Shown piece by piece: positions 15,001 to 43,501 of a stretch of 64,000 bases of DNA (within the stretch, counting starts at the first letter, position 1; every line of letters starts with the position of its first letter). Both the position numbers and the translations under genes were made by a program. The stretch lies in the NCBI GenBank assembly GCA_963702895.1, contig OY969767.1:768001-832000 (forward strand), read 5' to 3'. Source of the stretch: an uncultured Elusimicrobia bacterium. Lineage in GTDB: Bacteria; Elusimicrobiota; Elusimicrobia; 2-01-FULL-59-12. Under the pieces are notes generated by a model, which did not search any database, was not told where the DNA came from, and saw only the letters and a list, made by a program, of their open reading frames with translations.

Positions 15001-18000
15001 CTGGCAGCCATTTCTCTGAGTAATGAAAACGAGCGTTTCCTGCCGGGCGGGGACGCGCATGAAGTGCGCGTCAATATGGAGCCTGCCGCCTATTACGCGA
15101 TGATGAACCGCGCGGCCGAGAAACTGAAAGCGGTCATAAGTCGAAAAGGTGCCTCCCGCCCAATTTTCCTGGGTCATGGGGATCCCAACCCTGAAGCGGT
15201 GCGCCAATTTTCCAGGTTGAGCGCTTTTGACGGCATTGGGTTTAACCTCTATACCAACCCAGGTGCTGTCCCAGGCCTGCGCGCCCAGGTCCAAAACGCC
15301 ACAGCGGGCCGCCGTGTGCCATTGCATCTCGTGGCGGCAGAATTCGGCCAGCTTGCCCCGACTTTCCGGGGATTGACCAACAGGGAACGGGCGGCGTTCC
15401 GCGCGGAAAGTTTTGAAGCTTGGATCACCGCTCTTGAAAATGACCACTGGGCTTCCCACATGGCTTTTGAGTACACGGATGAACGCGAGAAGGCCTCAGA
15501 CGAGGGGGTTGGAGCGGACAAGTACGGCATTCGCGGCATCGAAGTGATCAATAATGTATTTAAGAAACACGCCGAACCGCCGTTGCCCGCGGCCGCGCCC
15601 GTACCCTCTGCCGCGGCGCCCGTACCCTCCGCCGCCGCGCCGGCGGAGAGGCCGCGTGTGGATCCGGTTTCCGTCCGGAATTCCGGCCGGAATGCTGATG
15701 GAGGGCCATTCTTTGGCCTGTTGGCGCGACTGGCCTCTCCTGCCGGAGCTGTGGTTGGCGCAACGCTCGTCGTTGGCATCATGGCCTGGCTCATTCGAAT
15801 TCGTATTCATCGGCGCACTCAAGGAAACGCGCAAGGGCCCACACTGCGCGATGAGGAACCGCCGCCTGGATCACCACCTCTGCCAGAGGACGTTTCAAGC
15901 GAAGAGCCGACTCCCGCTGGAACTTCCCCTCGCGATCCGAATCCCAGCATGGGTCCAACGGACAATCCGGAGCGCCCGCCAAGAGCTGACGCACAAACGG
16001 TCGAAGGAGACCCCATCGGCAATGATCATGGAACACCCATCATGCGGATTGTGCTCCGGGCTGCTGGACTCTTAAAACAGCTTGATCAGCCTTCCCCGAA
16101 TTTGCCGTTGTTGAGAGATCAATATAGGGAGTTGGAAAGAGACGCACGCGAGGCAGGGGTTGATCGTTCGAATCTCGTTAGCGGAGCCCTGGAGAATCTT
16201 AGAACGAGACTCGGTAGGACCCCCGAATCTTCCCCGCAGCGCGTCGGTGACGAGACCCAAGACCTCGATGAATGGCCAATTAGCAGTCGAAATACCTTCG
16301 CGGCAGCCTTCATCAGCAGTATTGTGGCCTTAACTCCTTTCGCCCTGGCCTATGCCGGTGTCAAAATCGCGGGCTTGCCGGGTGATCCGCTCTACCGGTT
16401 GGCAATTGTTCTTGCGCTTGTGCCCGCCTATGCCGCCCTTCGCGTCTATGGACGAATGGCATGGGCCATCCGCCAAGCCAAACGCCAAGCTATACGCGAA
16501 GTCGAACAAGGCAAGAAAGGCCAATATCCGCTTGACCCCATCCTCGCGGCGGCCGAGAGCTTTGATCCTCGTCAGAACCCGAAGGACTTAAGCGGCGCGA
16601 TGGAAGAATACCGGACCTATATGGCCTTTACGCTCGGCGGCCAGATCCATGCCGACAAGGCGGCGCTCTCCCACATTCCACCGGAGCTCCAGGCCCAGAT
16701 CGTGTCCCACGAGCTTGCTCATGTCCAGCAGGATCGGGCAGGGGTCGTCCGCTTCCGTGAGGTCCGCGCCTTCTGGGCGGAATTGAAGGAATCGCTCCGG
16801 GAAGACTTCGGCTTTGATCTCGACAGACTCCTCACGCGGCGTTTTGGTTTGGGTTCTCTCGTGACTTTGGTCTTGATGGCGCTCGGCGCGCCGCCCGTTT
16901 CAATGGCGGCCATGCCTCCCGCGCATCGTCCACTCGGAACAAATGACATTCATCGTTATTTGTCGTCCTTGGACGTGAGCAACGGAGTCTTTAGTCCCGG
17001 CGACATCTCCACCATTATTCTGTTGGAATCCATGGCCGCGCAGGCAGACCGCTTCAGGGGGGCGCGGGTGTTGGATTTGATGGCGGGGTCCGGCGCGCTC
17101 AGTCTCTATGCGGCGCAGCTCGGCGCCCGAGAAGTTGTCTCGGTCGACATCGACCCACAAGCTCTTGAAGACACGCGCCATAACGCGCGCGCCTTCGGGT
17201 TCGCGGATCGCATTCGAGCGGTCCAGAAAGACGTCATCCATGACCGCTTCGATGATCTCGGGCAATTCGACATCATTCTGTTCTCGCCTCCCCCGTTATA
17301 CATCGAAGGTGTGACAACAAGTTTGGCGGATAGGCTCAAGGAATTGCCCGCGCATGCCGTTGATTCGGACGCCCGCATCCTTGATCGAGTTGTCCAGCAA
17401 GATGGGATTGCCCAGTCGGCGTTGACGCCGGATGGCCACATGATCGCCTTCTTGGCCTACATGACTCCCGTTCTTGAGCGAATCCGCGATGGTGGGTTCG
17501 ATCGGCATCTCCTTAGACCCGTTTCTCTGGATTTTGGAGGCTATGCGGCTTTCGAAATCCGCCGGCAGGGAACCCCAGCGCAACCTTCTCAGAGAGACCC
17601 TTCCAATGGCTCGGTGGACACTTCATTCCCGCAGAGGGTTGATGGTGGGCCGACATCCGACAGTACGCGGAGAACTAATATCAATGCCGCGGTCAAGAAG
17701 CGGTTGGTGGACTACCTGGCGGCGGCGCGGGCGAGGGACAGCTTCGGGGTGCTCAATACTGCCATGGAAATGCCCGTTCTCACCATAGCCGGCAAGGAAC
17801 TCAAGCAGCCGGGGCCGGGCGGCGGCGGGCAGGGCGTGGTCCTCAAGGAACAGCCCCAGGAAGTGGGCAAGCAGGGCGTGGCGACCGCGGTCCTTTCGCA
17901 GCTTCCCAAGGCGTTTGTCGAAGAGCATTACCAGGGCTCGATCGAGAAGTTCCTAGCGGACTACGACCAGGGCCAAAAACTGATGGACATCGAGATCCCG

Positions 18001-20685
18001 GTGGGAAGCGGCACCATCCCGCTGGAAGTGCTCTACGTGGAACAGGAGGGGATGCCGGTGCTCTTCCTCTATGACCCGACGGGCCACCTCTTCCATACGC
18101 TCTACCAAAAGCCCAAGCCCGAATCGCTGGGGGGCTATGTCGAGGCGATTGTCTTGCCGCGCGCGGCCTACGAAATATCGCTTCGGCTCGGGATCCAGTT
18201 TGAGGCCTATCACTTCAACGACTGGCAGACCGCGCTCGGACCGGTGCTCCTGCACGAAGCCTACCGCGACGCGACGTGGGCTCTGGGTCACCGGCCGGCC
18301 GCGATCTTTACCGTTCATAATCTGGAATATCAGGGGATCTTCTCCGGCTGGCTCGGGCAGATGAATCCGGAACTGGTCGATGCGGAACTCTTACGCTATC
18401 TGGCAGAGCGAGGGGCGATTCCGGACTCCTGGGACGGCGATCTGTTTGCCTTGACCGGAATGTCCAGAACTGTCCGCGACAATGTGGAAAACGGCCTGGA
18501 GTACTATTCCAACCATTGGCCGGGGCAGCACAATCTGATGAAAGGCGCACTCCTTTACGCGGACCGGATTCCCTTCGTGAGCGCCGGGCACGCCGAGGAG
18601 GCGCGCACCACTCGCGGCTATTATCTCGAAGGTGTGGTGAACCGCGTTTGGGCTAAGGTGGTCGCGCTCTACAACGGGATTCGCGCGGACCGCCACCGGC
18701 CGCAGAATCTAGCCGCTCTGGACGAAAAGGGAACAGGCGCGCGAGGCGCGCGCTACCGGTTCACACGGCCGAAAAAGAATGGCAAGATCGTGAATTTCGA
18801 CAAAATGAAGGATGAAGAGCTCCTGGAATGGAAGCTGGCAAACAAGGCCGCGCTACAGAGAAAGCTTGGGCTGGACGAAGACCCCAACGCGCTGATCATG
18901 GGATTTGTCAGCCGGTTGGTGAAACAGAAGGGATTCAACATCCTGATGGAAAAGATGCCCAGCGGCAAGACCTTCTTGCAGGACATACTGGACACCCGTG
19001 ACGCGCAGGGTCACAAAGTCCAGATCGTGATCGAGGCGACGGCGCCGAAGACGGATACGATGGGCCAGGCGCAGGCCGCGTTCCTGCGGGAATTTGTCAG
19101 GCTCCATCCGGAATACGCACGCCAGTTTGTGTTTGTCGAGGAATTTAATCCGGCATTGGCCAAGCAGATCGGCGCGGGATCAGACCTGATGGGTATGTTC
19201 TCCATTGATGAGCCGGGGGGCATCGCCAACCAGGAATGGGCGCTGCTTCTGGCCAAGGTGATCGTGACCGACCGGGGCGGTTTAAAGGACTTCATCCTGC
19301 ATCATGGGTCCCCCCTGAAGGTCGTCGAGGGCTTTGGAATTGGAACAGGTTTGACAGACCGGCAACAGCGGCTCCGGACCGCCAATCAAATTCTTGATCG
19401 GATCAAGGATCAGATGTGGATGTATCACCACGATTCCGCCAGTCGCGCGAAATACGTTGCGGAGCTGAGGCAGTTGTCCCATTTCAACCCGGACTGGGGC
19501 GACCGCGCCAAGACCTATGTGCGGGCGTATGCCGAGGCGATCCGCGCGGTCCAAGCGGAAACGGCGGCGGCCGGCAAGGAGAGGAGGGGCGCCATCATTC
19601 GGGCCATGAAGAGGCTGCGGCTCGAGATCGGGATGCATAAGGATACCGCCGGCAGGGCCTACGCCAGCCAGAGCAACGAAGAATTGGTGCGCCGCGCCAA
19701 GGTCCTGATCGGCGAAAGAATCATGCCGGGAACTGATCAGGTGGCGGTTCTGGAGGCCCTGCAGCGCGAGGTGCCGGGAACGAATGTCCCCCGCATCTTC
19801 CTGATGGAAAATCGATTGGATCTCGCGGAAGGCGCGGCCGCGGCGGGCGCTGATGTGTTGAGCGGCTCCAACTTCAGCGAGGACTTTGTGAGGACTTTCC
19901 GGAGCCGCTTCCAGAACGTCGTCTTGATCGCCGAAGTTTCAAACGCCAGTCCGGATATCGAAGCGGACCTGCGCGCGGCGGAGGCGAGCGGCGTTGACGG
20001 GGTCATGCTCAAGCCTTGGAAAGACTGGAAACGGGATCGCCCGACGGGCGAGCTTTCACTCCAGGGGATTAAGGACAGGTATCCGAATTTTCAGTTGGTC
20101 ATCGCCGGTGGGATTTTTCAGGATCAGGTGGCGGATGCTTTGAGGGTTTCGGATGATGTCGTGGTGGCGGTCGGTACGACTCCGGAAGGGTTTGAAGCGC
20201 AGTTGCCGCAGTACGTGGAGAGGGTCCGAGAAGTGTTGTCAGGGCACAAGTCGCTTTGGACGGCCTTCGTCGCGCTGGCGGGTTCATTATCGATGGGCGC
20301 ACTTGCCGGCGGTCTGGGGATGGTTCTCCAGAGCGGCCGGATCGTGGATGGTGCGGTCGTGTGGGCCATCGCCAGCGCTCTCTTGTTCGGCTTGGACCTT
20401 CTCTTCATGGGGCTTGTGGGATCGACTACGATCGGTGAACGGCGCCCGGATGGATCCATTTGGGTTCACCCCGGACTGCCTGGTTTCGCGGCCCGCCGCG
20501 TCGCCTGGCATGAGAAGCTGGTGCACGCCGTTCCCGGCGGCGACGCGGCGGATTTCTTGGTCGCGCCGCTCGCGGACTGGGCGGCGGTCGCGCTCGCGGC
20601 GCTGGGATTGGGTGTTGCCCCGGACCGAGAAGTCTTGTGGCCGGACTGGACAGAAGGAATCAACAGGGTGCGATCCGCCGCATAA
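1..20685 (+). CDS. Giant multidomain membrane protein (ORF1), 5'-truncated by the window edge, >6,890 aa
   Basis: Frame 1 is open from base 1 (GAC TCC TCC GGC...) through the GTG at 85 to TAA at 20683-20685. Contains RHS-like repeats, SLT, many TM helices, GT48-like, GH-A, methyltransferase, GT5 and aldolase-like barrel domains. Confidence 0.93.
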   Translation, partial: DSSGRPHQLLRRYQTQRALSDDPGRKYWVPVEVTDVLKDDWSRLEFYNARGNLVELYEPSASDKHSRDGIHWTRVERDRQGRETSRDVYYSASGAMPRVARVDDQGRPVYEPAELARLEHMLHASIGGTYQGAPIQRYNPADGSANVIMEDLVRHQTSLERYSVNGRLSERTVGREQTFFDASKPVEWPTHKIDTVSGERLEEYVVINDPKEMERYGRPAKAGIDYNIVSSGVILVRSHVTLSSRVEIYELARVTRRVATQGTLTEITNITYRPNGIEEAYDVTVSKDGRTIERRHVEDLWWEPGTGIGHGTETKLDTGEKVSRLVDINGHLLAEFSVGRDFGTLTFVDRDPKTNHESGRRTYGLHRNAVNLDPVDRENLTLAKLIALSSNPSLAQLRSGSGPPVYHVDGTVTVPMWDVQVDENGNAVGKEFRVDHRDSLGRLLRQERGDFTIEFDPAQPVEVPLFKYRTADPKKTPVETYEVRLHRTLLGRLTLGLFGRITGTTVVTRDLLHNQTYEDSYDLFDPYQDRHTVRDVAHGVTGVSTPVFNSFGLRTGTLTVYTSPEGQETTETQIERGGTQEDPSTITREDNLTTGLSLRRQTDASGRVVKEATVNAKFNTVTFVDYDSAGEEAARRTYPVPGGMSIDPEAFARLSEREVVFALLGPERGALAMADRVSRPTLIRSEAPRYRADGSFDQVQYDAVYDENGEFMGEIRKEQVRSRLGRLVTEKVGVPATGIYVTTYNARWSVAFPVEKTADGHPMERYTLRLGPGIPGFDWTAAILDVRNTRDNKQWTDTYDVFVGLVEHAIAGTQNGASATERTRPLRNALGIVIGGETFFEYENGESIKIYDDRNVGVNAERQEVTVRRRMTAPASVRGERLREITPYDALILQAAGDTGVSERLLKSIMQVESSFIETAQSEKGAKGLMQLHLPEGDAEAAEFWRTNYGVSDPFNPEQNVRAGSRYFRDLLERFNGDTDKALAAYNAGPGAVERAAKKWAAQVPGRDWRQAAFDQLFPYLPVETQSYVFKVTDLEAGSPAPVGTANLVNGSIVYDVENRRINSGSDLVGISNARFTSGIHLEHATGRHTSTQIQRATGRVVVTTMLDPRTQTSESTFWYDHARQIEASRRVQRLNIFDRPESTQASISLNGTRQFRTVSNLTYNRRIPTAVGMALTLPADPVTGEPVSLRDLAQRDPAHLKSSLLPQLTRDTVSVMSGGLTSVDRVNLVTGQAANETRLYGDWLMDRTDPEAWEQEITSYDMDRGFSYPVFTVNGLGELIKRYTVREITLDGRIVLEVTAHKLEPQLKQGPKGQLTPEEARRPAIDTVFAFLEPTGLDRASEAFNFHEARELNARGDETESTKRRTRFKHKDPVTGETQETPWFESSSFPRKRGEISGHVEVETVENGSELQVTLRTGNRISTAGERYVDAQHFQIVVERDGAVQLQPTGGLIPEAVLESEVTIQVDGRMVLVDTLRALVNRNLRISAPKYRGGTEALGSAVVVRLTGAAGTFLPDDVADRQRILTQTQDLVFDTTFRREFDLRGRITKREIAIPSAEPQETTRDGLVSVQQRPEGSNWYTTEFDYGARKDSLYEQMAMRVNDQVIDRASLNRDAQGGARVTRAGDLNLPAEVMQALHWTQNSRLVSYRHVVPDRQNPNEPSVARYFDEYVLPNSGYGTIMVEITPAGTQGRHWTLVRTFPGTDIWFRSTLYYRNNQGQLEWIKRAELNVDNRGVPGVAPELLVERVTDPLLRQGLERFIDTTITTRWGHTYHEITVPYHPVGRLAYSFLDGNWAINTENSRGDFLGVVSRVNPTDGRAYQVTQTEPLIPTGTGSPVLSAPIGFDRDGHKIYLTHAVAKSFGWRQGDLRSAAGYFLNPNQRWYVMQRDQDVLNRIDKEIRGDYTLVNIYLDYPSDQHPHNLSIDRLDPVARRRAEAAGIKHSAVPFMTLIFDNRGKSPEDVLRMTTAEFLSSNGVDNFLRRQGIQAKGLEGIKEWAARPATSIDDLGTMPGVMVAKRWAGNTNLLVDHVSGLPMSMLNRFEGTEVASRFARRLTGKDLRTVVSELAGTLDPAKQQIALTQIKGLKDDAIAPDVLTRALRLLDPKLARRLDELTKPPSRQETTKVNIYESRDDKEKSLRFEAFRASGQSLWSVYEGSSDSPGHKRLFFDEYGEPVADEVISTIELGNILAERLAPYPFNIYDIVYEPLEGGGINPNIAMVYAYDVRPTAGNLLQRYLLGPVNGIPWQRWEYGRLTEVVHNFWITETKSGAPGPQGIVGQILAPQNRGLWDRVRRSPTGQIIGRTYDSFADFVQRNFDLIKKALPNENAVQNPPKTPSAQVPQTPPAPASPVRTPVQVAPPQGTPPPGRGGEAQNQTATPNPETTGSRTKTAARILTVALAVLLGGAQTLLAQTVVPAATGLPEKLSMPSHLLHMPNVALDSNAMLTAACAILVGAWALNRIRRRIGQIRAIPSRPDLNVAPERLTVNELLASPDPQTFRANLSRAFPEVNRGLQQLMDQNLLTPEKLRTVIADQARTMGEGDLRGLLNERYLGLEVLQKVIDDIYRPMINGYFNEYGLTENEEDWARLGILKTDPVVRNRPLDIRDDITRKMLDRIREGLLVDPRDPRENPVAVQRDDGYPGDDGLTVRVRRSVQEEASGWVDYSLRRFHREQLFGFLVGGHQLQQGFLEHTLLDADLFEQRLRDEGRAGQGRTPPTGWLSEILTRTRDKAWREMFVLTVELNEQLSARIRKGFGMNDRTLQRIDGPQEQIWRLLLEEEYWNYLFDYVGFNDPYEVLGVTKAHLESLVVDRAGTTLGDLLSRRGYNREIDPANIRDGQTTWTNLAPSAVPSAALLRRLMQGLSPSQRTVLVQEIVDTKFIPFLIAHWKGGLNVKEVRAIAAEMNLEPAIMAQVNDILRRHLDTLRGQGIDVDRYGDYQMVPEDAIRTAMEAGVQREVVEPGAGPLGDIKRLHSSLRRGLQPQLKSEVEQAVRMKLLPQFETFPRRYFNPVRLPLFWKSGVRWALTAGASIFFSLWSVGQPFLGIASPFGRLFSDVLGVVAVRHARWLLVPLFDSGSGWTIGSLLIIGLVAMPLACAVSYLLWRLVLRFEAPINRGVAGWVARHGRGRPGLINEMLEQHIDPRFRWAGEGLSTEEWNKLSPESQEWIRQSIRGLRFWIGRLLPAFAITMLTLMSIYAVPAVEAQTGLGPVLFNIFAMGGMYVLWALFTYVLVRAFGMMGQAFVAARSHREVGRFTVPTRWELQQSLNLFRSRAGITTPQPASFWRNLARPLTLAVIVLGLLGMLAALFGFPGTDWLNTVLWQWISQAATFQGQPLATAGFGQLPDITVTVRGLLASASGLVAAMGAVYAWARHREMSKRFGFYNYQLAGMSEERTRARSIKLYARVVDKLLEKSRISAEQHRMLRQYVVPRGLTEEAEEELKFFMNTFFTKRDGKEGVPEAALPWEAAPHLVDQLQSYTEIVSPTIAGLTALVGYNAGAPLDPQKNPAPGARAYAQEIQNFAIKIYPADWRHFVDRMRQIKGRWLEDVQRQHGVGSPEALEAERKIDADIAALASLDENTVLMVLNDPAHLTPDEEKLQRAFALAGYPHVALMHAGNAPLIEEIILWTTPKMAVVRRAVESAMLTRQVMREWAEEELADTPEAVALRSRFGPDLDIEGRENPERAALRRKLRIWVDAMTDQGRKAKLLDELNRTGWMTLTWLTDTEFNSLLAMRDPQAPGRPLLSNDEDRYLRLDRTINQVLEERYQMNYNAGRVDRDWLRETAQRPDYQRTVQYNGLSEGGLTQNYTWDQLNDYHFEHPDRIDGLTLLESLMAAYPGEWVRFVDWLRDRSPNADVRREVGEKRDTLAHGDLDGISQALRDQFTLWANVHPGFHISTDYMGNDPTDWARLMGTGMLRFNESLAPYKASLWTTTARYLTSAVFYNDATQHREFDRTLLIPNVMSEWNKPQYGFMLMPMDVAARDLTPVKASQSIGERTWTFMVQLGMALRGMVLFYGRGGGGKVDLLVRSRRPMHSTSRTPALPAASLPTTTPSSAPSIAKVIVALVLVGYTVAVLSGFVGPPNFTVTLLIPMVAVSLFGRSSRSAAIRKQDPLRTPASHTVKYLWNLRSSFLPFSLIAEDAYAAMMQIVEGSWVFYTQAISFFGDKPPTVGAAMNPEMKYVADMGELVNRLAAKRMAYSPTVPLNVKQVQQFTPGAFYGIKLAVLALNVAFNVLAILLPLDPAHSFPVPWLFVGQGGYLSQAINIATVLLLNFKLGAPLGLLTFLGGVAINPGYFWMFTLLIPLYVWSQSAWGMTGLFDFRMTARVPPNAPIGIRDMYRLHHLGIMLAAPLLLLMHNFAAYHPIVFWVTGLQYVLMLVGWIIAPQILNPREERVQSVRNRLVPVAVMTVVGVYAGLLLGYSGALYLALGWAAMKLIFYRDTLKQVRGHTSDVDSLAIIALSIASYGNPVLFLLPLAWVLMERNRRHWLIEHPRTAARMVWNFILRRGAWDGRVFNGYLPNSLRMAGWGLADVAMFIFGGQEITLDGVRAVRLISFGPQWLQDMTVVRPIDPNPDYLRWNWNPMVAARGRFRGMGLLLFASSFLVWFGASMELVLSAFLVYAALRFGMFVYRIRLTRELRGIVDDWYAQRRIRGYATLTAQEIHDEIARDPRLGPRLRRIEPLRGAARSRTQRLIDDALQFDRSTTLCAIFDERFAYSLETLTHELKMVRESSTLYKILPTMSVASQHYQSVTPPAPVPPAVNQGRRRFLKLTGAAAAAVATAGAYKALNSLSEWGAGKVKEIKPGVENWAFPGMSVAPEALFTSAPNAAKSVVMTEDRQSGPQWMVDGRRILMRQGVAYQPVEPDERYYENYVSPNRLDVLYAKLLPKEEIAELVRTNPYFNGFEGQGRNDVQDLAQIGITAIRIYQMPIPEDDDMAKWSLQERFEVLRFKEIMRRVAARGIHVYVSEDLGVTRRSPKAADEAWIQARVEKLGRIYGDEPWLAAISLSNENERFLPGGDAHEVRVNMEPAAYYAMMNRAAEKLKAVISRKGASRPIFLGHGDPNPEAVRQFSRLSAFDGIGFNLYTNPGAVPGLRAQVQNATAGRRVPLHLVAAEFGQLAPTFRGLTNRERAAFRAESFEAWITALENDHWASHMAFEYTDEREKASDEGVGADKYGIRGIEVINNVFKKHAEPPLPAAAPVPSAAAPVPSAAAPAERPRVDPVSVRNSGRNADGGPFFGLLARLASPAGAVVGATLVVGIMAWLIRIRIHRRTQGNAQGPTLRDEEPPPGSPPLPEDVSSEEPTPAGTSPRDPNPSMGPTDNPERPPRADAQTVEGDPIGNDHGTPIMRIVLRAAGLLKQLDQPSPNLPLLRDQYRELERDAREAGVDRSNLVSGALENLRTRLGRTPESSPQRVGDETQDLDEWPISSRNTFAAAFISSIVALTPFALAYAGVKIAGLPGDPLYRLAIVLALVPAYAALRVYGRMAWAIRQAKRQAIREVEQGKKGQYPLDPILAAAESFDPRQNPKDLSGAMEEYRTYMAFTLGGQIHADKAALSHIPPELQAQIVSHELAHVQQDRAGVVRFREVRAFWAELKESLREDFGFDLDRLLTRRFGLGSLVTLVLMALGAPPVSMAAMPPAHRPLGTNDIHRYLSSLDVSNGVFSPGDISTIILLESMAAQADRFRGARVLDLMAGSGALSLYAAQLGAREVVSVDIDPQALEDTRHNARAFGFADRIRAVQKDVIHDRFDDLGQFDIILFSPPPLYIEGVTTSLADRLKELPAHAVDSDARILDRVVQQDGIAQSALTPDGHMIAFLAYMTPVLERIRDGGFDRHLLRPVSLDFGGYAAFEIRRQGTPAQPSQRDPSNGSVDTSFPQRVDGGPTSDSTRRTNINAAVKKRLVDYLAAARARDSFGVLNTAMEMPVLTIAGKELKQPGPGGGGQGVVLKEQPQEVGKQGVATAVLSQLPKAFVEEHYQGSIEKFLADYDQGQKLMDIEIPVGSGTIPLEVLYVEQEGMPVLFLYDPTGHLFHTLYQKPKPESLGGYVEAIVLPRAAYEISLRLGIQFEAYHFNDWQTALGPVLLHEAYRDATWALGHRPAAIFTVHNLEYQGIFSGWLGQMNPELVDAELLRYLAERGAIPDSWDGDLFALTGMSRTVRDNVENGLEYYSNHWPGQHNLMKGALLYADRIPFVSAGHAEEARTTRGYYLEGVVNRVWAKVVALYNGIRADRHRPQNLAALDEKGTGARGARYRFTRPKKNGKIVNFDKMKDEELLEWKLANKAALQRKLGLDEDPNALIMGFVSRLVKQKGFNILMEKMPSGKTFLQDILDTRDAQGHKVQIVIEATAPKTDTMGQAQAAFLREFVRLHPEYARQFVFVEEFNPALAKQIGAGSDLMGMFSIDEPGGIANQEWALLLAKVIVTDRGGLKDFILHHGSPLKVVEGFGIGTGLTDRQQRLRTANQILDRIKDQMWMYHHDSASRAKYVAELRQLSHFNPDWGDRAKTYVRAYAEAIRAVQAETAAAGKERRGAIIRAMKRLRLEIGMHKDTAGRAYASQSNEELVRRAKVLIGERIMPGTDQVAVLEALQREVPGTNVPRIFLMENRLDLAEGAAAAGADVLSGSNFSEDFVRTFRSRFQNVVLIAEVSNASPDIEADLRAAEASGVDGVMLKPWKDWKRDRPTGELSLQGIKDRYPNFQLVIAGGIFQDQVADALRVSDDVVVAVGTTPEGFEAQLPQYVERVREVLSGHKSLWTAFVALAGSLSMGALAGGLGMVLQSGRIVDGAVVWAIASALLFGLDLLFMGLVGSTTIGERRPDGSIWVHPGLPGFAARRVAWHEKLVHAVPGGDAADFLVAPLADWAAVALAALGLGVAPDREVLWPDWTEGINRVRSAA
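130..6800 (+). other. ORF1 domain: RHS/YD-like beta-strand repeat region with about 280-aa super-repeats
   Basis: Recurrent motifs RDRQGRETS, DINGHLLAE, RDSLGRLLRQE, TDASGRVVKE, RSRLGRLVTE, FDLRGRITKRE; homologous blocks begin near 138, 976 and 1804. Confidence 0.6.
2659..3099 (+). other. ORF1 domain: soluble lytic transglycosylase (SLT/GH23)
   Basis: PYDALILQAA...IMQVESSF (catalytic Glu)...SEKGAKGLMQL...NVRAGSRY...ALAAYNAGPGAV...ETQSYV, the canonical SLT motifs in order. Confidence 0.93.
10290..13170 (+). other. ORF1 domain: FKS1/callose synthase-like (GT48-like) 1,3-beta-glucan synthase region
   Basis: Ordered motifs EAEEELKFFMNT, IYPADWRHF, LTLLESLMAAYPGEWVRF, NDATQHREFDRTLLIPNVMSEW, GERTW..VLFYG, AEDAYAAM, KYVADMGEL, IAPQILNP, followed by multiple TM helices. 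Confidence 0.7.
14520..15560 (+). other. ORF1 domain: clan GH-A (beta/alpha)8 glycoside hydrolase/transglycosylase (GH72/GH2/GH5-like)
   Basis: GVAYQP, DVQDLAQIGITAIRIY, ISLSNE (acid/base), DGIGFNLY, VAAEFG (nucleophile), MAFEYTDE; preceded by the Tat-like GRRRFLK motif at 14287-14307. Confidence 0.75.
16980..17560 (+). other. ORF1 domain: class I SAM-dependent methyltransferase
   Basis: RVLDLMAGSGALSLYAAQLGAREVVSVDID...FDIILFSPPP. Confidence 0.85.
17760..19545 (+). other. ORF1 domain: glycogen/starch synthase-like (GT5)
   Basis: GGGGQGVV, HFNDWQTAL, FTVHNLEYQG, NLMKGALLYAD, YNGI, NKAALQRKLGL, FVSRLVKQKG, EPGGIAN, GGLKD. Confidence 0.88.
19700..20240 (+). other. ORF1 domain: ribulose-phosphate-binding barrel (KDPG aldolase/HPS-like)
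   Basis: AAAAGADVLS, LIAEV, AAEASGVDGVMLKP, LVIAGGI, VVVAVG pattern. Confidence 0.5.
20491..20609 (+). repeat. Coding repeat copy 1 (ARRVAWHEKLVHAVPGGxAADFxVAPxADW)
   Basis: The 52-bp stretch gcccgccgcgtcgcctggcatgagaagctggtgcacgccgttcccggcggcg is identical in all three copies. Confidence 0.95.
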
Positions 20686-20720
20686 ATAGTTGTACTGAGT
20701 GACGTCGCCCCGGCATGTTG

Positions 20721-20772
20721 TCCCCCTTGAGTCCGGGGGACTGTCCCTTCCTTTAAATTTAGAGGAAGGGGA
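20721..20772 (-). repeat. TCCC/GGGACAGTCCC/GGGA double-hairpin mini-element (reverse orientation)
   Basis: TCCC...GGGACTGTCCC...GGGA lies inside the ccccggc/gccgggg stem after ORF1. Confidence 0.6.
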
Positions 20773-20880
20773 CGTTAGCCGGGGATCTTCGGTTGTATGT
20801 ACCTCCCTCGCCCGCGGGACGCGGGAGAGGGAACGAAAAATGTGAGGATGACATCTTGTGATGACGTGTCAGGAGATCCA

Positions 20881-23800
20881 TTGAAAACATTGCATTCCTT
20901 TATAGCTCTTGTCCTTTCGGTGGTGCTGATCGCCCAACCTGCGGCGGCGTCTTGGCCGCCGCATTCTCAAGCGAGCGGCTCCCAGACTGTCCTTTCAGAA
21001 TCTTCTCCACAGGAACGTGTTACACAAGAAGCCCTTCTTTTGGGTGGATACTGGTTCCGCCAGGCGATCACCACGACCCAGACAGCGTTCCGACTACGTC
21101 GAGCCGTTCCTCGAAGCCTCTCCCCAGTTTTCCTCAGGACCGTCCGGTTTACGCTCGGAATCGCGGCAGCGGCTCTCTCAGGCGGGGCGCTGGGCCTGGC
21201 CTACATTGATGATGTTTACGACAACCCCACACCCAGGACCCCGGCGCCTCAAACCCCTAATTTCTACAAGAACTGGCTGGAGTTTGTGGGGGACAATTCC
21301 CCCGACTGGCAGCGCTTTAACCTTTTAGGGGCGGTGGTCCTTCAGGTGAGCGCGAAAAATGATGGGGGAATCTTTACCTTTGATCAAATCAAGCAAGACA
21401 CCTTGGATAGCTTTGAGAACCACCTCTTGCCCGCCAATGAAGAGAAGATCCAGTCGCTGCTCAGCAAGATGGTCGAATTGCATCTCGTTCGGCAGGATGC
21501 CGAAGGGCGCTATGCGCCACTGGTCGAGCCCGAGGTGATCGCGGTTAAAACGGAAAATGTCGCCTTTATCCAACGCCAGCTCGAACACGCTCTTCGCAAG
21601 GGAGCGCGCGACGGCGTGAAGGCGGAGACGCACCTGTATCAGCTCTTGGAGCATTACGCCAGGATCGTCGAGCGTTGGAAACTTGACCCGCTTGAGGCCC
21701 GCTGGCCGGTCCTGAAGGCTGTGGCGCGACTCTCCCAAGCCGATCAGACGCACCTCCTTAAATTTCTGGATGCACACGCCGACCAACTACAGCATTGGCC
21801 TCTGATGGGCTCGATGCTCCTCATGTTAAGAAGGGAATTTCCCCCCGATTGGCTCCTGAAGCATGCGCCGCACATGGTCGGACGAAATCACTATATCGTG
21901 GGGTCGGAGGGCTGGTATGCCGCGGGCGGGCTGGGCCGCGTCCTTCAGTATAATGCGGCCGCCATCCAGCACCTGGCCCAGGGCCATATGCCGGTGATCA
22001 CCATCGAGCCCTACTATTCCCACTGGCTGGACGGTCAGCGCAAGCTCCATCAAGGGCTGCGCTATGGGCCCGGGGGGCCTCTCATCACCCCTGTCGAAGG
22101 GCTTTCGGAGGTGCCCGTGATGAGCTTTGAAGTGGAGGTTAATCACCGGCAGGTCCTTGCGGAAGTCTTCGAGGGTACCAATGAATACGGCGTGAAGGTC
22201 TATCTCATCCGCGACCGGCAAATCAATCCCGCCAACGGTGAGACTGAAAGCCTGATCACACGGGTGGTCTACAATTATCGGGAAACGGACAAGCTGGCCA
22301 GTGATGAGGCGATCAGCACCGCCGAAGAGTTCACCGAGTTTATGTCCCGTGCTTCTCTTAAGCTGATCCAAAGCCTGGAAGAAAAAAAACAGGAAGCGAT
22401 GCTGGCCGCCGGAGACACGAGCTACAAAGCCCCGGTGATCAGCGTCAACGATGGCCAATTCGGGCCGTTCGCGCTCTTTAAGCGGGACCTCGACCGGGTC
22501 TGGAAGGCGCTCTCAGGCGCGGTGATTTCGTTTGTGACCCATACGTACCGGAACCGGATGTGGTTTCGCGGGGTCGATTCCTCCAGCATGGGCGCGGCCT
22601 TTGCTGATTTCGTTCAGTGTGTGGCCAGCATCCATCGTCAGGAAAAAGCCGCCCCTGCAGACCCCGACATCCGCGTGGTCGCCAATACCAATGGCGACAA
22701 CCGCGCGCTCACGCGAAGGTTGTTCCTGAAGCTCTGGACGCAGCTTTTCGGCCATGCCCATCATGAGCACCCCAGTGACGAGCAGATTCGCAAACTGAAA
22801 TACCAGGCCAAGAAACAAATGCGCTTCGACCGCACGCTCCTGGAAAGCCTTGGAATCTTTCGCGCCGATGAATATGTTCTGGATCCTGACAAGCTCGTGC
22901 TTGTTTTTACCGGCCGCCTGGATCCGGTGAAAGCCGGACGGGAACGCGCGTTGACGGATGACAACATCCGGCTCCTCGTATCCTTGGGCGTGCAGGTGGT
23001 GATCTATGGAAATATCCAAGCCACAACAAAAGAGATGTACGACGATCTCGTGCGTCTAGCCAAGGAAGTGAATCAGGTGCCTGAAGGGACTGACCCGAAG
23101 ACACGAGGCAAGCTGATTGTGCGTTCCGGATGGGGTCAGCCGGAACAGATCGAGCTTCTGGCCGCGGCGGATGTGCTCGTGGTGGACTCCGATCGCGGCA
23201 CCGAGGCCGCGGGCATTTCTGAAACGGATGGCATGGCGACCGGCTGCATTATCGTCGGTCCTGCCGGGCTGGAAGGCATCCTTCAGAAACAGGGTCTGCC
23301 GATCAATCGAGCGGAGGCCTATTCCGGCAATACGGCAATACCAGAGGAATCGACCCAGGTCGGCTATGCCAAAGTCTATCAATGGCTGCTCGAGCTCTAT
23401 GAAAAGGACCCGGTCCGATTCGCGTCCTATCAGGCGGCTTCCGTCCGCTTGAGCCGGATTCTGGAGGCGGAACTGCCCGCCGCCGAAAACCTTCGCCAAT
23501 ATGACCGGGCTGTCCAAAGAAAAGACGATCCTCTCTATCTCTTGACCGAAATCAGGCAACGCTTAACAGAGGCAGACAAATACCTGTGGTCCTATAGGGT
23601 CAAGACCGAGTTACTCAACTTCCTGGCATCCTCCCTTATTTCGCACTCCATCGCGTTCGAGAGGGAGGACATCAAGACCTCCATCATTCGATTGGAGAAC
23701 GGAGAGGTCCTTTTGCTTGCGGTGGATCGAACGGACACGCGGCCCAGCCCTTGGGGAGAGAAGAAATTTGGGCGGCTCCTTTTCAACGCCTCAGTCGACG

Positions 23801-26800
23801 CAAAGCAGCTGCAAGAACTCTTGGGTGTCGCAGAATTAGACCCTGAGAAAGAGTTTATTGTCGCAGACGCCGCGACGGGAGAGATCTACGGGCAGCACAA
23901 AATACAGAAAATCTTAGAACAAGAGTTCAAAGTGGGTGTCCCTGTCGGGAAATTCCAGATGCTGCAGTTTTTGCCCGTGACAGCTCCCACCGCTGAGGGC
24001 GAAACGGTGGCCGAGAAGTCACTCCGGACCGTTCCAGCCTCCTGGTCGGGTAACGCGCTCTACTCGGCACTTCTGGCCATCGCGGGGTACTTCTCAGGCA
24101 TCGAAGCATTGGAGTCGGCTGCGCTGGCGTCCTTTATCGCAGGATCGGTCCTCTTCGTTGAGGAATACCTTTATATGAAGCGCCGAGGACTGGATCGGTT
24201 GGGTTGGAGGGACGCGAAGGGAGCCATTGGGACCGTTCCCGGTATGAGTCCGTTCCGCGCCCGCCGCGTCGCCTGGCATGAGAAGCTGGTGCACGCCGTT
24301 CCCGGCGGCGCCGCGGCGGATTTCTTCGTCGCGCCCTTCGCGGACTGGGCGGCGCTCGCGCTGGCGGCACTGGGATTTACCGTTGACTCCGAGGTTTGGA
24401 CGCGGGTGCGACAGTTCCGCGGTCTTCTGGCCCACGAATGGGGGCATTATGGGGCTGCCAAACGTCATGGTCTTGCTGTGGGAACGTCCTTAGGGACCCT
24501 GTTTCGCGAAGCTTGGCAGGGTGAAGGCCGCGTTACCGTTCCCGAGATGGATACGAGTCAGTACCTTGGCCGCACCGATCGGGTCTATCATCGCAAGGCC
24601 CTGCGGGTTGCTCAGGGCGGGATCCGGGCCAATTTTAATGCAGCGGTTCGCGACAGTGTGATCGCGGCGGCCGGCAGTTTCTATGCCTGGCATTCGCTAA
24701 GCGGCTTAACGGCCGCTGTCATCACCGCAGCGCTCGCCGCCTGGATGGCGTATTCCATTGACAGCAACCGGCTCCTCACGCTCAACGAGTTGCACCGGCT
24801 TGAGGTGAACAGCGATACGCGGCGGATGCAGTATCACCTGCGCGAGCTTCACCCCGAACCGCCCGCACGGAACTGGTTCCAGCGATGGATCATATTCCCC
24901 GCGATCATCGTTCACGAGCGCGGTCACTACCACGCGTCCCGGCGCCTCGGCCTGAAGCCAAAAGGCTGGCTCATCCCGACACTCCGCTACCTATGGACGG
25001 GGAAAGGGATGCCCTTCGTCACCCACAGGCAAACGGCGTTGATGGATATCACGACCATAGGCGAGGCGATCGCTGCGCAGCGGGATCTCCTGGAGGTCTA
25101 CCGCGCGGGAGCGATCGCCAACTTCGACGCCGGCTGGAAAGTGATCCTTCCCATGGCAGCCCTGCTGGCCGGTACACTGTCGATAGGCGGTCCGATCGGT
25201 TCGGCGCTGACGGGATCCGTTCTGGCAGGCTCGATCTGGTTTCTTTGGAACAACGGTCATGGATTTATCCGAAGCGCCGGCGTGCCTTGGGACAGGGGTG
25301 ATCCCTTCGGGTCGCAGATGGGACAGGCCGCCATCCAAATCTTGTCGGACATTGAAGCCAGAGAAAGGAAAAAACTCGGGGAAGCGGGGCGCGAGGCCCC
25401 CATCCCGATGCGTCCTCACCTGGATGAGTTGTTCGTAAGACTCTTCCGCTTCACGGGCCCAGCACCGATTCCAACGAGCGCGGAGATAAGAGCTCAATCT
25501 TCCGGAAAAACAAGGGGCAGCGCGCCTGACGATCGCCAGCCGGCCGCAGCGGCTCGCTCCGGCGCCGGGAAGGACTGGGAGAGTCAGAAACAGGATTTCT
25601 TGAGGCGCATCGCTGCGGCCCCTACGGAAGAGGATCTCAAACACGTCTATCGAGCGATGGCCGTGGAATTCCATCCCGACAAGAATTTGGGCGATCCAAG
25701 GGGTGCAGAAGAAATATTCAAGCAGCTGTGCAACGCCATCGCCCGAAGGGTCAAACCTGGTTCCGAGGACGAGTCGCCAGAGGAAGTCCAAGGGTCCGAC
25801 AATCTCGAATGGCTAAAGCAATGGCTCGACGGTGAATTGCGTGGCAGCGGCTTTAGGGTCGTCCGGTGGCCGGAGGACCTCGGGCCGGAAACGAGCGCTC
25901 CTTATGCCCGAGATAATCAACGCGTTGTCGGCGGAGCGATCCGCGCGCTGAAAGAACGTTCGAACGGACCCGGCGCGAGGCCCGGTCGCGCTGATCACGA
26001 TCAGCGCTTGTCGCGGGGCGACTCAACGCTGGCGTCGGCGATTTCAGCGGAGGAGGCGTTGGCCACCTTGCCAGGATCCGGAGCCGACCGTGGAGGCGCA
26101 GAATCTGTCCCAGGTGACCCGCTTGGGTCGGCTCGTTTCACAGCGGAAAAATTGCACAAGGCCAGAACCCTGCGCGTCGGCGAGATTGTCCACCTCCGAC
26201 GGGGGGACCAGCTGTTCAGGACCGTTGTGCTCGGAGCGATGACGGCGGCGCATCCTACCCTGGAACTGATCAAAGTTCCAGCTCCGTTCGGGGTTGTGGG
26301 CGATATGCTTTTTCCGGAACCACTACCTGCGGAGTTCTTTGACTTGGATCCTGCCGAAATCGCTTCCGTCGCGATAGACCTTGAACGGGAACCAATCCGC
26401 CAGAGCAAGAAAGTCATTACGATCGGCGACCAGCTGGAGGTCACCTATGATTACGGACGAAGAGCCAGGGTGACCGTCGTGGCATATAACGATGGAATGT
26501 TCGTGTGCATTGGACATCAGCGCTTGTGGGACCGGCCGGACCACTATGGGGGCTATGGAATGTCGTTCGGCGAGCAATATGCTCGTGAAGAACTTGAGAG
26601 GTCGGGTGGAAACCTGCGCAAGGCCCCGCTCCAACCGGTTGATGAACCTTCCCTGCCCGCGGAGCATCCTGGCCAGCCGGCCCAGGCCAATGTCTCGGAG
26701 ACGCATACCTTGAGCTTCGGCACTCTCACCGTCCATTCTGCGCGGGAGACCGTTCCGGGATTGTGGAGGATCGAGTTCAGCGTTGAAGGGGGGGATGTTC

Positions 26801-29800
26801 GGGCGAACCACGGCGTCGTCTTATCGATGGATCCAGGGCGGTTTCGGATTGAACCCGTCGTTTCGAGGAAGGTTCTCGAACGGAACTTTGATCCCCGGAA
26901 CGGCGAACCGCTCGTCCAAACTCCCGATCTCCGTATGGGATACACGGTTCGGGACATGGCGGAGGGCCGAGCGCCCGAAGAGGACCTGATTCGACCCGCG
27001 GGTGCGCGGCCAGACCGGGAAGCGCTTGTCTTGGCCGTCCCCGCGACGGATAACATCTTGTCGCGCAACGCCCTTCTTGGGATCGACGGGAAGCTGGTGG
27101 CCAGGCCGAAGCAGGCCGTCGGCCTGACGGAATCGCGCATACAACCCCCTATGGGGTGGCATTCGATGTTGAGCCTGGACCCGAACAAGCCCGTCGTGTT
27201 CAAGCTGAGATTGAGCCTGAACAACGTTACTTTTGTCGACGAGGATGGGGCCACCGAAGCCACCGAATTTTCGAAGGTCCCTTTTGATCCACCCTTGGTC
27301 ATTAGGGATGAACAGCGACGGCAGGTGGACAAACTGCCCGTGCGGAACTTCGTGTCTGGGCAGAGGGTGGTTGAAGGGGGCCGCAATGTGGCTGGCGAGC
27401 TGCGGCGCGACCCCGAAACGATGTCGACGGGAGATTCGGTCAATTGGGGAAATGTCGACGAGCCCATGGCCTTCAGTCTCAATGGATACACCCGCGCCGG
27501 GCGGTTGGGTGTCCTCCAGGTTTGGGGAAATCCTGATCCCGAACAAAACGGCGGGAAAGCCGAACTGAATATCAAGCAAGCCGCCGAAGTGGCCTTGGCG
27601 TTCGGCTTCGAGGATGCGATTCTGGGCGCGGCAAGCGGTGGCGTGTACCGCGCTGAGCGGTCCCCTCAGGCGCAGGCAACGGAATTCATCGCGGAGGGTG
27701 CCCCGGGGAAGAGAAATAGTCGCCTCGATCAACATCTGAGGGTCCGCGGGAAGCCCGGCGATCCGGGCCTTCGTTTGGGAGCGGCCTTTCTCATGATTTA
27801 TCAGCGCGCCGGCCTGAATAAGGGAGCAACGAGGCATGGCATTGAGACGGGCTCGGGTCAAACGGCCCCTCTCAGGCGCGGGCTCCCTGCGGTTTCCCAC
27901 CGCCCGGCCGAGAAATCCTTGGCGACGGTCAAGGCCGCCTGGGCGGGCAGTGCGGCTTACACCGCGGTGGCCTTGGCCGTCGGGATCTTTTTCCGGCATG
28001 GGGAATGGGCCGCGGCGGCGGCGCTTTTCCTGATTGCCTCTTCGCTCCTTTTCGGCGAGGAGCATCGGTTCATGAGCCGGACAGGCCTGGACCGCTTGGG
28101 GCAGAAAACGGCTGACGGCGCCACCTGGATCGCCCCGGAGTTGGGCCGCGGCTTCCGCGCCCGCCGCGTCGCCTGGCATGAGAAGCTGGTGCACGCCGTT
28201 CCCGGCGGCGCCGCGGCAGATTTCTTCGTCGCGCCCTTCGCGGACTGGCTGGCCCTCGCGCTAGCGGCGCTGGGATTTGAGGTCAGAATGGCCTTGGCTG
28301 AACTCAGAGAAACCCTGGAGGCCGAACAGCCCGCCGTCGCTCCGATTCCAATTGAAGCGGCCGATCAGGCGGATTCCCTCGTTGTGGGCACGATTGAGGC
28401 TCGATGGCCGCTGGAGGAGCAAAAGGAGCTGTTGGCCCGTCTCGTTCCCCAGGCCGCCAAGCAGGATGTGGTGGTGGTGCTGCAGGAGCCGCTGGCGGAA
28501 GGGCTGCCGATGAAGGTGACTCTCACCCGCCGCGAATGGACCGCAAACGCCAGCGATCCCTTCAGCACCCTGATGCAGCTCTTGGAGTCCCAGGAGAAGG
28601 CGGTAGACGGGACCGGTTCGGGCTTTTTTAAGATCTACGATGACGGGCAAAGCCTCGAGACGGTTCGTCTTCCCGTTCCCGGGGTCGCCGGAGTAGAAGC
28701 GGAGTATACCGTGAATCTCTTGCGGGCGAACCGTCCGGGCGGAGGCGGCCGTTCGACGGAATGCACCTTGTGCGGGGGAGTGATCAAAGAGAGATTCCCG
28801 AATGAGCTGGGGATGCGCATGGGGCCGCTGACGGTTTATTTTAATCCCTTCTCGTTCTGGCCGTCGCGCCACGATCAGGATCCCCTGACGTCGGCTTGCC
28901 ATGTGGTTGCCGTCTGGGGGGATGAACACCTGTCCCAAACGCGGCTCGCCGAGATCCGCTCGTTGCGTGCGCTGCGCGAAGAGTGGATGCGGCTGAATGA
29001 ATCGCCGCGCCTGCGGAATCAAACCAAGTTCCGTATGTTTTTGAACGGATGGAATTACGATCCCGAGCGCCCCGAAAATAGCGGGGGAGCGACCCAAGAT
29101 CATATCCATGCGCACTGGGCACGCAAGCCCTTCGCTTCGGAGGCATGTCCGGTGGCGTCGAGGGCTTTACCCAGCGGCGTGCGGGTGGGCCTCGTGAATT
29201 TGCTGCCGGATGCCGATGGCCAGAAGTCCTTCGATCACGTGGCGCTCTCGCTCGAAGCCGATCGGGAGCATCTGTCCGAACTTGATGAGGAAATCGCGAG
29301 AGCCCTTAAGCTCATTACAGGCGAAAAAGATTCCTTTAATGTCCTCTATTTCGAAGTGCCAGCGGAAGGGTCACGCCCTTCTTCTATTCGTGCCCTGGTG
29401 ACGGGACGCAACCGGGGAGTCCCGATGACGGGCCATGGGGCCTATGGCGCTCCGCAAGTGCTCGGGTTGAACCAAGTCATTGGAGACCGGCCGGGTCATT
29501 TTTATGATTTGTCACCAGAACAGCAGGTTTCCCTTGAAGCGCTACCCTTGGGAAAGGTGCTTGAGTGGGTTCGTCTTGAGCGAGCGCAAGGGCGTTTGCG
29601 GGTTCGATCTCCCGAAGATTTACAGAACCGCTATCGGCAGGCACTGCGGGAAACAGCCTACTCCCGAGGTCAAGTGGAAAATCTGATGAGACGCATCATC
29701 GATGCTGCCGAATCGGGATGGCGAAACAAAATCGGCAAATTCATGAGTTCATTGGTTTTACCGATTTGGCGGCAATGGAATGCGCTCCGCCGAGATAAAA

Positions 29801-41447: not shown

Positions 41448-41861
41448 ATGAACACGCCATCCTCCAAGACCCATCAGGCCACGATCGTCGTGATTGACGA
41501 TGATTTCGGCATCCGAGAATCCGTCAAAGACATGCTCGCCCTCGAAAACTGGGACTGCGTGATGGCGGAATCCGGCAAAGAAGGCCTGGAACTCATCAAA
41601 GCCCTGAAACCGGAGCTGGTCGTGGTGGACCTTCAGCTTCCGGACATGTCCGGCTTTCATCTTTGCAAGAGGATTAAGCGTGACCCCGCGATGCGCGAGA
41701 CGCCGATTGTCATCATCACAGGGCGCTTTACGGAGCTGCAGGACAAAATTCAGGGATTTGAGTTTGGCGCCGATGAATACTTTTATAAGCCGTTTGAACC
41801 GGCCTTCTTTATCTCGAAAATACGGAGCATTTTGAGGGGGCTGGCGACGAAGGCGGCGTAG
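41448..41861 (+). CDS. Single-domain response regulator
   Basis: IVVIDDD, VVVDLQLPDMSG, IIT, GADEYFYKPF. Confidence 0.9.
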   Translation: MNTPSSKTHQATIVVIDDDFGIRESVKDMLALENWDCVMAESGKEGLELIKALKPELVVVDLQLPDMSGFHLCKRIKRDPAMRETPIVIITGRFTELQDKIQGFEFGADEYFYKPFEPAFFISKIRSILRGLATKAA

Positions 41862-42032
41862 GGAACGTCAACGGCAAACGGCGTCCCCGCGCTGAGTCTC
41901 TGCGGGGACAGTCCCGCGACCTTTAAGAAATAGGATGCGGGACGACAATCGAAAATAGACAATAGACAATTTCTGTGGTGGGGGAAAAAGACGCTTCATT
42001 GCCTGGGACAGGCTATCAAGCGTCTTTTTTAT
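41860..42032. repeat. Direct-repeat unit A (with mini-element at 41884-41942 and a bidirectional terminator-like hairpin at 41985-42030)
   Basis: agggaacgtcaacggcaaacggcg...aatagac...gtggtgggggaaaaagacgct...gcgtctttttt, repeated at 43534-43643. Confidence 0.85.
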
Positions 42033-42060
42033 GGGTGCATGGCCATCCAATCAAATGAAA

Positions 42061-43465: not shown

Positions 43466-43467
43466 AA

Positions 43468-43501
43468 TTACGTTAATTATCATAAATGATAATTAACGTA
43501 A
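43468..43501. promoter_or_regulatory. Perfect 16-bp inverted repeat, probable AbiEi operator
   Basis: ttacgttaattatcat-aa-atgataattaacgtaa, AT-rich, 2 bp upstream of the abiEi ATG. Confidence 0.75.

Follow-up and report, generated by a model that had tools for sequence, protein, structure and literature searches.

In a 64,000-nucleotide stretch of the genome of an uncultured Elusimicrobia bacterium (contig OY969767.1 of assembly GCA_963702895.1, positions 768,001 to 832,000; here called the window), two giant open reading frames (ORFs), ORF1 and ORF2, carry three copies of a cassette of about 125 amino acids (aa). Our comparisons suggest that the three cassettes represent a single small conserved domain with a predicted membrane anchor, placed between cargo blocks unrelated to one another in giant proteins of Elusimicrobiota. 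The back half of this domain likely serves as a substrate for homologous recombination, which would keep the copies alike and would sometimes fuse or split genes in frame. We give this reading, which rests on sequence data, a probability of roughly 0.65. Throughout, position numbers are window coordinates on the + strand, cassette residues are numbered within the ∼125-aa domain, and G000 denotes the genome of the window, a single contig of 2.72 Mb without N.

Near-identical cores joined to diverged front halves

An initial annotation of the window, made from the sequence alone, had described a repeated cassette at three cargo boundaries, with a DNA-identical core and a diverged upstream part. 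BLASTN, TBLASTN, and alignment confirmed three cassettes at these places, with near-identical cores and diverged front halves (Table 1). A run of 52 bp is identical in all three copies (20491-20542, 24259-24310, and 28159-28210), and between copies 2 and 3 the identical run measures 65 bp. The core pairs aligned by BLASTN over 127 bp at 92.9%, 119 bp at 91.6%, and 126 bp at 95.2% identity (E values of 2e-47 to 5e-43, and 3e-52). Among the three copies there are 11 variable sites within 119 bp, all of them in the 3' 67 bp that follow the identical 52 bp; immediately before the left boundary of the core there is an indel. The DNA identity of the front halves is 45 to 55%, and their protein identity is 22 to 36 of about 80 residues. 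A fourth copy was not found in the 2.72-Mb genome by BLASTN, TBLASTN, an exact 15-mer search, or all-frame profile searches; the remaining BLASTN matches to the core were at most 34 bp long, with E values of at least 0.1. Beyond the cassettes themselves, the 20-residue tail after copy 1 (20623-20685) and the spacer after copy 2 (24385-24420) have a few residues in common in the same order, which weakly hints that the end of ORF1 and the start of the M50-like block after copy 2 may be of common origin.

Is the DNA identity of the cores a consequence of constraint on the protein? In the 42-codon core, positions with the same amino acid used the same codon in 30/33, 28/32, and 34/38 cases between the G000 copies, against 11 to 13 expected from codon usage. 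The same comparison between the G000 copies and the single cassette of G005, a genome from the same family and another genus, gave 12/26, 14/30, and 12/31. The front halves of the G000 copies shared 14/22, 11/28, and 14/35 codons, and two blocks of orthologous cargo from G000 and G005 shared 181/431 (0.42) and 87/193 (0.45). Because the core differs from its G005 counterpart as much as ordinary sequence does, while being near-identical among the paralogs, protein constraint offers no explanation for the identity at the DNA level.

The front half and the core have conflicting ancestry. In the front half, copy 1 is nearest to the G005 cassette (43/80 aa; UFboot support of 95), and the alternative tree was rejected (approximately unbiased [AU] test, P = 0.02). 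Site patterns reversed from 66:34 and 64:33 in the front half to 0:25 and 2:24 in the core; this flip had Fisher P values of 2e-10 and 6e-8, both overstated, since the breakpoint was picked after seeing the data and the sites are not independent. The grouping of the front half of copy 1 with G005, together with the synonymous identity of the core within the genome, indicates recent gene conversion. Three old front halves thus appear joined to one young core, which points to at least two copying events since the split from G005; that these were gene conversions is well supported by the sequences. Gene conversion or recombination at the core, as the initial annotation had proposed, is therefore supported both by synonymous identity and by the conflict between front half and core.

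We found 105 near-identical pairs genome-wide with both copies in long ORFs, 9 of which lie in giant cargo genes whose proteins end in Ala. These nine comprise the three cassette cores, two pairs of hydrophobic linkers from another giant gene (at genome position 1,417,320), three low-complexity repeats, and one adjacent duplication; by our own reading of the sequences, none lies within an enzyme domain.

An assembly or polishing artifact of the G000 sequence is an extremely improbable source of the core identity. Each copy has private bases at the 11 variable sites, the flanks are unique, and the genome is a single contig without N. The same pattern, with different DNA, is also seen in another genome, G006 (see below).

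Does the core act at the level of DNA? A site-specific recombination site or protein-binding site lying in frame by chance would fit the sharp left boundary and the perfect first 52 bp, with all of the variable sites in the next 67 bp. However, the neighboring indel can account for the sharp edge, and the codon comparison between G000 and G005 revealed no conservation of the core DNA across genomes beyond the protein level. No consistent hairpin was found (z of −1.7, 1.0, and −0.5 in the three copies and 0.4 in G005), none of the 15 inverted repeats in the repeat listing of the window falls in the core, and relatives of the cassette were not found in viral contigs (0/44 candidate stretches), phages, or plasmids. 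We consider such an element very unlikely. A site-specific recombination site of the att or attC type was rejected on the missing inverted repeat and hairpin, and a mobile-element origin was rejected on the missing match in viral, phage, and plasmid collections and on the chromosomal position of the locus. The eight downstream ORFs that were scanned include a Mutator-family transposase at 40009-41259, about 12 kb from copy 3, and no integrase; a genome-wide integrase search was not made.

The cassette as a protein domain

We then asked how widely the cassette occurs. Iterated searches of 301 genomes of the class retrieved 12 copies in 6 genomes, with matches in 4/10 other genomes of the family and in 1/15 genomes of a second family. 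Weak matches in G423 and G426 (E = 0.03) stand outside this count, and a weak match in G296 was dropped because it lies within an ORF that reads as DNA-ligase-like. A three-sequence profile run against 1.84 billion proteins returned five matches (ORF2 itself, two proteins with the layouts of genomes G003 and G009 described below, and two others), two of which were dropped as repeat-protein false positives. Word-index searches of proteins of up to 2,000 aa gave one and two matches, all from already known cassette loci, and the ESM Atlas held no usable match for the cassette. Neither L012, which is the same assembly as G005, nor the ORF2 match P0002 (99.97%), which is the window's own protein, was counted as independent. 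Across the 10 host proteins, 4 copies form the terminal module and 8 are internal. Because two-thirds of the copies (8/12) are internal, a pure C-terminal sorting signal is unlikely.

The 11 copies from the family share 23 to 61% identity, and 12 residues are invariant in all of them: K3, S4, T7, G14, G71, H91, E92, H96, D105, A109, P110, and D113. These residues include the motifs HExxxH and DxxxAPxxD. HExxxH is present in 11/12 copies; the remaining copy, from G402, has the canonical HExxH with a two-strand-like segment before it and carries a Glu in the D105 column. AlphaFold modeled the cassette as a compact unit (pLDDT of 93, pTM of 0.82) with a strand, two long hydrophobic helices, two strands, the His-Glu helix on which the HExxxH motif is placed, and two short helices, in that order. 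The strands (residues 2-4, 63-67, and 73-75) are all short, and there are five helices in total. We take the predicted order of elements to be reminiscent of membrane zincins, a link that no profile, sequence, or fold search confirmed. Pfam peptidase profiles (M50 and M48) matched 0/12 members at an E value of ≤5, and the M50 match at the locus is limited to the separate module after copy 2 and falls below the cut-off. Foldseek searches with two models (pLDDT of 93 and 75) gave no match at an E value of ≤0.001 in the PDB or a viral library. The best VIA Z scores for the two models were 5.4 and 6.1, all for generic helical matches, which does not imply a novel fold.

On the basis of these data, we regard the cassette as an unannotated domain of ∼125 aa, possibly a metal-binding derivative of a protease. 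The initial annotation had suggested a conserved metal-binding signal; what stands of this suggestion is the residue conservation itself (invariant His, Glu, His, and Asp). A metal would be bound by the two His residues and an acidic residue on the next helix, beside the two membrane helices. Descent of the domain from a minimal zincin with its metal site is tentative, in our judgment slightly short of even odds. With its invariant residues, the domain may be the place at which such giant proteins are processed or bind metal, a function that they are presumed to require.

Could the cassette be an active metalloprotease that splits the giant protein at the membrane into separate cargo enzymes, so that the joint is both genetic and proteolytic? 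Such self-processing would suit the invariant His, Glu, His, and Asp and the canonical HExxH and Glu of the G402 copy. Zincin-like MPTases, some with HEXXXH, are interspersed in polyvalent proteins, where autoproteolysis has been proposed (PMC5512222, in the part of that text available). However, the domain is tiny, and its model contains only three short strands; the 4/12 copies that are the last module of their protein would have little downstream to release; and none of the 12 members has a Pfam peptidase match. Judged on these residues and models, active self-processing seems quite unlikely.

The initial annotation had also listed looser relatives of the cassette in ORF1, ORF3, and ORF4. 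The motifs do occur there, and homology to the cassette was not confirmed: cassette profiles built from 8 and 11 sequences found no match in these modules (hmmsearch --max), and hhalign probabilities against the cassette were 1.7, 1.6, and 9.8 for the ORF1, ORF3, and ORF4 modules, respectively. In the alignment of the ORF3 module, the His-Glu and AP motifs are in register with those of the cassette; in the ORF4 module, the motif His is not conserved in its one ortholog. We presume from its VSHELAH motif that the ORF1 module is zincin-like, and its homology to the cassette is unsupported.

A fused gene in a relative and the movement of cargo

Can recombination at the core change the order of cargo? 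The giant gene of G005 matches ORF1 along its length, across scaffold gaps. Within a single open frame of G005, a match to ORF1 aa 11920-12911 (53%) is followed by a match to ORF2 aa 2370-2967 (46%); the next gene is an ortholog of ORF3. The cassette is matched only once in G005, and in 25-residue windows its best partner is on the side of copy 1 up to cassette residue 50, mixed in the loop and core, and on the side of copy 3 thereafter. The 7,668-bp block that runs from core 1 to core 3 in the window, and that holds the stop of ORF1, the spacer, the head of ORF2, cargo, copy 2, further cargo, and the front of copy 3, is absent at the corresponding G005 locus. Two of three queries from this block (the front block of ORF2 and the one that precedes copy 3) had no match in G005; the third, the M50-like module, found a homologue (33%) in another G005 giant, with other neighbors and no cassette before it. 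Both G005 flanks are similarly diverged from G000 (synonymous identity of 0.42 and 0.45). These data suggest that one gene fusion or fission likely took place at the cassette. Since a deletion in the G005 line and an insertion in the G000 line are equal in steps, either direction is possible. Within the missing block, the gap between ORF1 and ORF2 contains a terminator-like hairpin with a T-rich tail (20735-20751).

These observations can potentially be explained as follows. Selection on the HExxxH helix would keep about 120 bp alike enough for pairing. RecA-type conversion (a recA gene is present in G000) would then make the paired stretches identical again, and the indel immediately before the core would set the end of the conversion tracts. 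If copies 1 and 3 crossed over, the 7,668 bp would be lost, or gained in the reverse event, and the product would stay in frame because both partners are homologous codons. If circularized at the core, the block would form one whole gene of the class, ending in the cassette and Ala-Ala, with a layout as in G006. The identities of 52 to 65 bp reach the minimal recombination segments of 23 to 27 and 44 to 90 bp quoted in the available portion of PMC12074656. We infer that ordinary homologous recombination, with the most constrained helix as its seed, explains these events most simply.

Other relatives show the cassette beside different cargo. In G003, which belongs to the same genus as G000, a GT5 block, the cassette, and a stop precede the ORF3 ortholog, and the upstream block differs at the front edge of the cassette, not within it. 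G009 has a GH77 block followed by the cassette and a stop. In G006, a single cargo block lies between two distant copies (667 bp at 90%), whose longest stretch of exact identity, 77 bp, spans the same HExxxH helix. In a giant of G009 (L037:2-5014), we observed proline dehydrogenase and pyruvate-dehydrogenase-E1/transketolase domains directly before its cassette, and thus enzymes of central metabolism are also among the cargo. The initial annotation had called the core a hotspot for cargo shuffling. Cargo does vary at the junction in one relative, G005. A hotspot is not shown by this single event, and the ORF2 front block and the M50-like block also stand in other proteins of relatives, beside different neighbors and without a cassette.

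Several points weigh against recombination at the core as the route of cargo change. The junction is known from one genome, whose assembly is fragmented (about 80 contigs, 92% complete), with scaffold gaps 4.6 kb upstream and 8 kb downstream of it. In G008 and G002, the ORF2 front block forms the start of genes that have different tails and lack the cassette, and the M50-like block of G005 has other neighbors, also without a cassette. A tree test on the core alone rejected neither topology (AU P = 0.25 and 0.75), an indecisive outcome because the outgroups are saturated. Finally, 6/10 family genomes have no cassette match, and searches of the cassette against Pfam, NCBIfam, and PDB sequences gave none.

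One potential explanation that takes up some of these points is that the conversion is real but a by-product: the cassette would be only a membrane staple or structural linker maintained by selection on the protein, and the G005 fusion a one-off deletion or an assembly mis-join without wider importance for how these proteins are built. The single junction fits this view, as do the two homogenized linker pairs of the gene at 1,417,320, the shifts of cargo blocks without a cassette in G008, G002, and G005, and the upstream difference in G003 at the front edge of the cassette. However, the equal divergence of both G005 flanks is expected for old vertical descent, no second G005 cassette was found that could cause a mis-join, and the arrangement of cassette, cargo, and cassette occurs independently in G006. 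We therefore regard the by-product explanation as unlikely, although it is the most serious of the alternatives, and favor the cassette core as a substrate of homologous recombination.

A stronger version, which we regard as a long shot, is that giant polyproteins are naturally assembled with the cassette as their standard joint: the domain would depend on a metal, sit in the membrane, cleave itself, and use its catalytic helix also as the recombination seed. If so, enzyme blocks with a cassette on either side could be cut out as circles that each form a complete gene, enter other giants in frame, and then be released by cleavage at the same module.

Cargo of the locus and comparison with known systems

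Four giant ORFs (ORF1 to ORF4) follow one another on the + strand, with gaps of 81 to 169 bp that hold no small genes. ORF1 is 12,935 codons long from stop to stop, starts ∼18 kb upstream of the window, and has 32 hydrophobic segments in a simple hydropathy scan. A Pfam scan of the window part of ORF1 (its first 6,041 codons lie outside the scan) found SLT, methyltransferase, and starch synthase domains and no C39/S8 peptidase or SecA-like domains. An ortholog of the GT5 block stands before the cassette in both G005 and G003, and the hexulose-phosphate-synthase-like block is found in G005 and not at the corresponding place in G003. From motifs alone, without a database match, we take the ORF2 front block to look like a GT-B glycosyltransferase; the ORF2 tail block, which has no Pfam or PDB match, is presumably HIT/GalT-like, again by motif alone. 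Genome-wide, Ala is the last residue in 18/33 ORFs of ≥1,400 codons and Ala-Ala ends 12/33, including ORF1, ORF3, and ORF4. All 10 cassette-bearing proteins have a final Ala, with Ala-Ala in 7/10. These ends resemble a degradation tag or an end signal specific to the class.

TABLE 1 Positions of the cassettes, the block absent from G005, and the cargo of the giant genes
Feature	Position	Strand	Remarks
ORF1	1..20685	+	3' part of giant multi-cargo membrane protein; ends Ala-Ala
ORF1 hydrophobic hairpin and HExxH module (VSHELAH)	16285..16827	+	By motif
ORF1 S-adenosylmethionine (SAM) methyltransferase cargo	16978..17334	+	Pfam MTS, E 5.7e-11
ORF1 starch/glycogen synthase (GT5) cargo	17824..18642	+	Pfam PF08323, E 7.8e-23
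Hexulose-phosphate-synthase-like block, adjoining copy 1	19954..20172	+	NCBIfam TIGR03128, E 0.0016, below cut-off
Cassette copy 1, C-terminal in ORF1	about 20245..20622	+	Front half orthologous to single G005 copy
Homogenized core of copy 1	20491..20609	+	First 52 bp common to all three copies
Block from core 1 to core 3, 7,668 bp	20491..28158	+	Absent at corresponding G005 locus
ORF2, 3,012 aa	20797..29835	+	Same protein class as ORF1; ends Ser-Ala
ORF2 head (hydrophobic signal-like start) and front block	20797..24009	+	No Pfam, NCBIfam, or PDB match
Cassette copy 2, internal in ORF2	24010..24390	+	Core 24253-24378
HExxH module, weakly M50-like, directly after copy 2	24421..24849	+	Pfam PF02163, E 0.0009, below cut-off
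DnaJ J-domain cargo of ORF2	25624..25740	+	Pfam PF00226, E 3.3e-7
Cassette copy 3, internal in ORF2	27907..28290	+	Core 28153-28278
ORF2 tail block	28291..29835	+	No Pfam or PDB match; 47% identity to post-cassette block of G005
ORF3, 1,529 aa	30005..34594	+	Orthologs directly after cassette-bearing gene in G005 and G003
ORF3 C-terminal module	33932-34354	+	Remote cassette relative at most
ORF4, 1,725 aa	34676..39853	+	FBPase_3 cargo (Pfam)
ORF4 C-terminal module	39218-39685	+	Remote cassette relative at most

Other features of the window were noted in passing. The FBPase_3 matches of ORF4 fall in four stretches and look like two tandem enzyme copies. Positions 1-7500 hold the SLT lytic transglycosylase domain of ORF1 within a long region that resembles RHS/YD repeats by eye. 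Further downstream, 41844-44377 carries an AbiEii-type gene and a four-helix-bundle gene (23S rRNA IVP family) between 111-bp direct repeats, with an inverted repeat copy, short repeats of the ATAGAAA/ATAGACA type, and the Mutator-family transposase (40009-41259) nearby. Around tRNA-Ala(CGC), at 49182-49508, the 5' end of tRNA-Ala is partly duplicated and a 47-bp sequence is repeated exactly, possibly as an integration scar. Translated 8-nucleotide tandem repeats lie inside a dnaX-like gene (50765-50924), and similar ones occur in N-terminal linkers of ORF1.

How does the cassette compare with known systems? Polyvalent proteins, as far as the available part of PMC5512222 describes them, likewise combine many unrelated enzyme domains in one chain and carry a His-Glu domain, the MPTase, in one to several copies that are terminal or interspersed; an HEXXXH variant is described for these domains. 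Unlike the cassette, which is chromosomal, has a hydrophobic hairpin, and lacks a profile or fold match, they are encoded by phages or conjugative elements, and that part of the text describes no DNA homogenization of MPTase copies. The acidic third-ligand column of the MPTase scheme is Asp105 in 11/11 family copies and Glu in G402, a correspondence of sequence columns only. Against the three-stranded sheet of the MPTases, the cassette model has three strands and five helices, and five fold searches gave no clear match.

Archaeovorin-type giants of Omnitrophota, in the available portions of two preprints (bioRxiv 10.1101/2023.11.21.568195; 10.64898/2026.06.07.730766), are similarly rich in membrane helices, carry glycosyltransferase, methyltransferase, and peptidase cargo, and have been proposed to be cleaved. 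ORF1 shares the combination of glycosyltransferase and methyltransferase cargo with many membrane helices. Archaeovorin genes exceed 90 kb, whereas the chains here, in Elusimicrobiota, have 1,500 to 13,000 aa (ORF1 having 12,935 codons). "HExxH" and "recombination" occur zero times in both preprints. In the portion of bioRxiv 10.64898/2026.06.07.730766 available, nucleotide tandems between repeats are mostly dissolved, unlike the cassette cores.

Conversion in assembly-line polyketide synthases (PKSs) is alike in that patches near-identical within a genome and modestly similar to orthologs mark recent conversion (PMC8256042, available part). The cores, at 92 to 95%, exceed the within-cluster identity of >80% given there for GRINS. 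A classification as GRINS was rejected: the cores are only 119 to 127 bp long, against the required >500 bp, and their GC skew (−0.01 to 0.09) is too low where |GC| and |TA| skew should both exceed 0.15 (the TA skew is 0.38 to 0.40). Unlike in PKS modules, the homogenized stretch of the cassette belongs to a linker domain flanked by non-homologous cargo, and a crossover there would alter architecture rather than module specificity. In polymorphic toxins and Rhs proteins, recombination at a constant segment swaps the downstream part (tip exchange; PMC3482391, available part), which the cassette resembles; it differs in that its cargo is of metabolic type and the joint is also internal and repeated. 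We saw no toxin-immunity pairs or orphan cassettes, and no toxin family among the Pfam matches of the four giant ORFs.

Thus, as far as these sources go, recombination at conserved segments is already known for PKS modules and polymorphic toxins, as are interspersed His-Glu domains for polyvalent proteins. We found no literature on the cassette domain or on recombination in giant genes of Elusimicrobiota; supplements, which may hold domain lists, were outside the search. The accessible text of the two preprints (bioRxiv 10.1101/2023.11.21.568195; 10.64898/2026.06.07.730766) offers no explanation for domain gain and reordering in the giants of Omnitrophota and Elusimicrobiota. Linker domains homogenized by conversion and used as in-frame crossover points would provide a concrete route for such reordering, and one relative shows the fused product that this route predicts.

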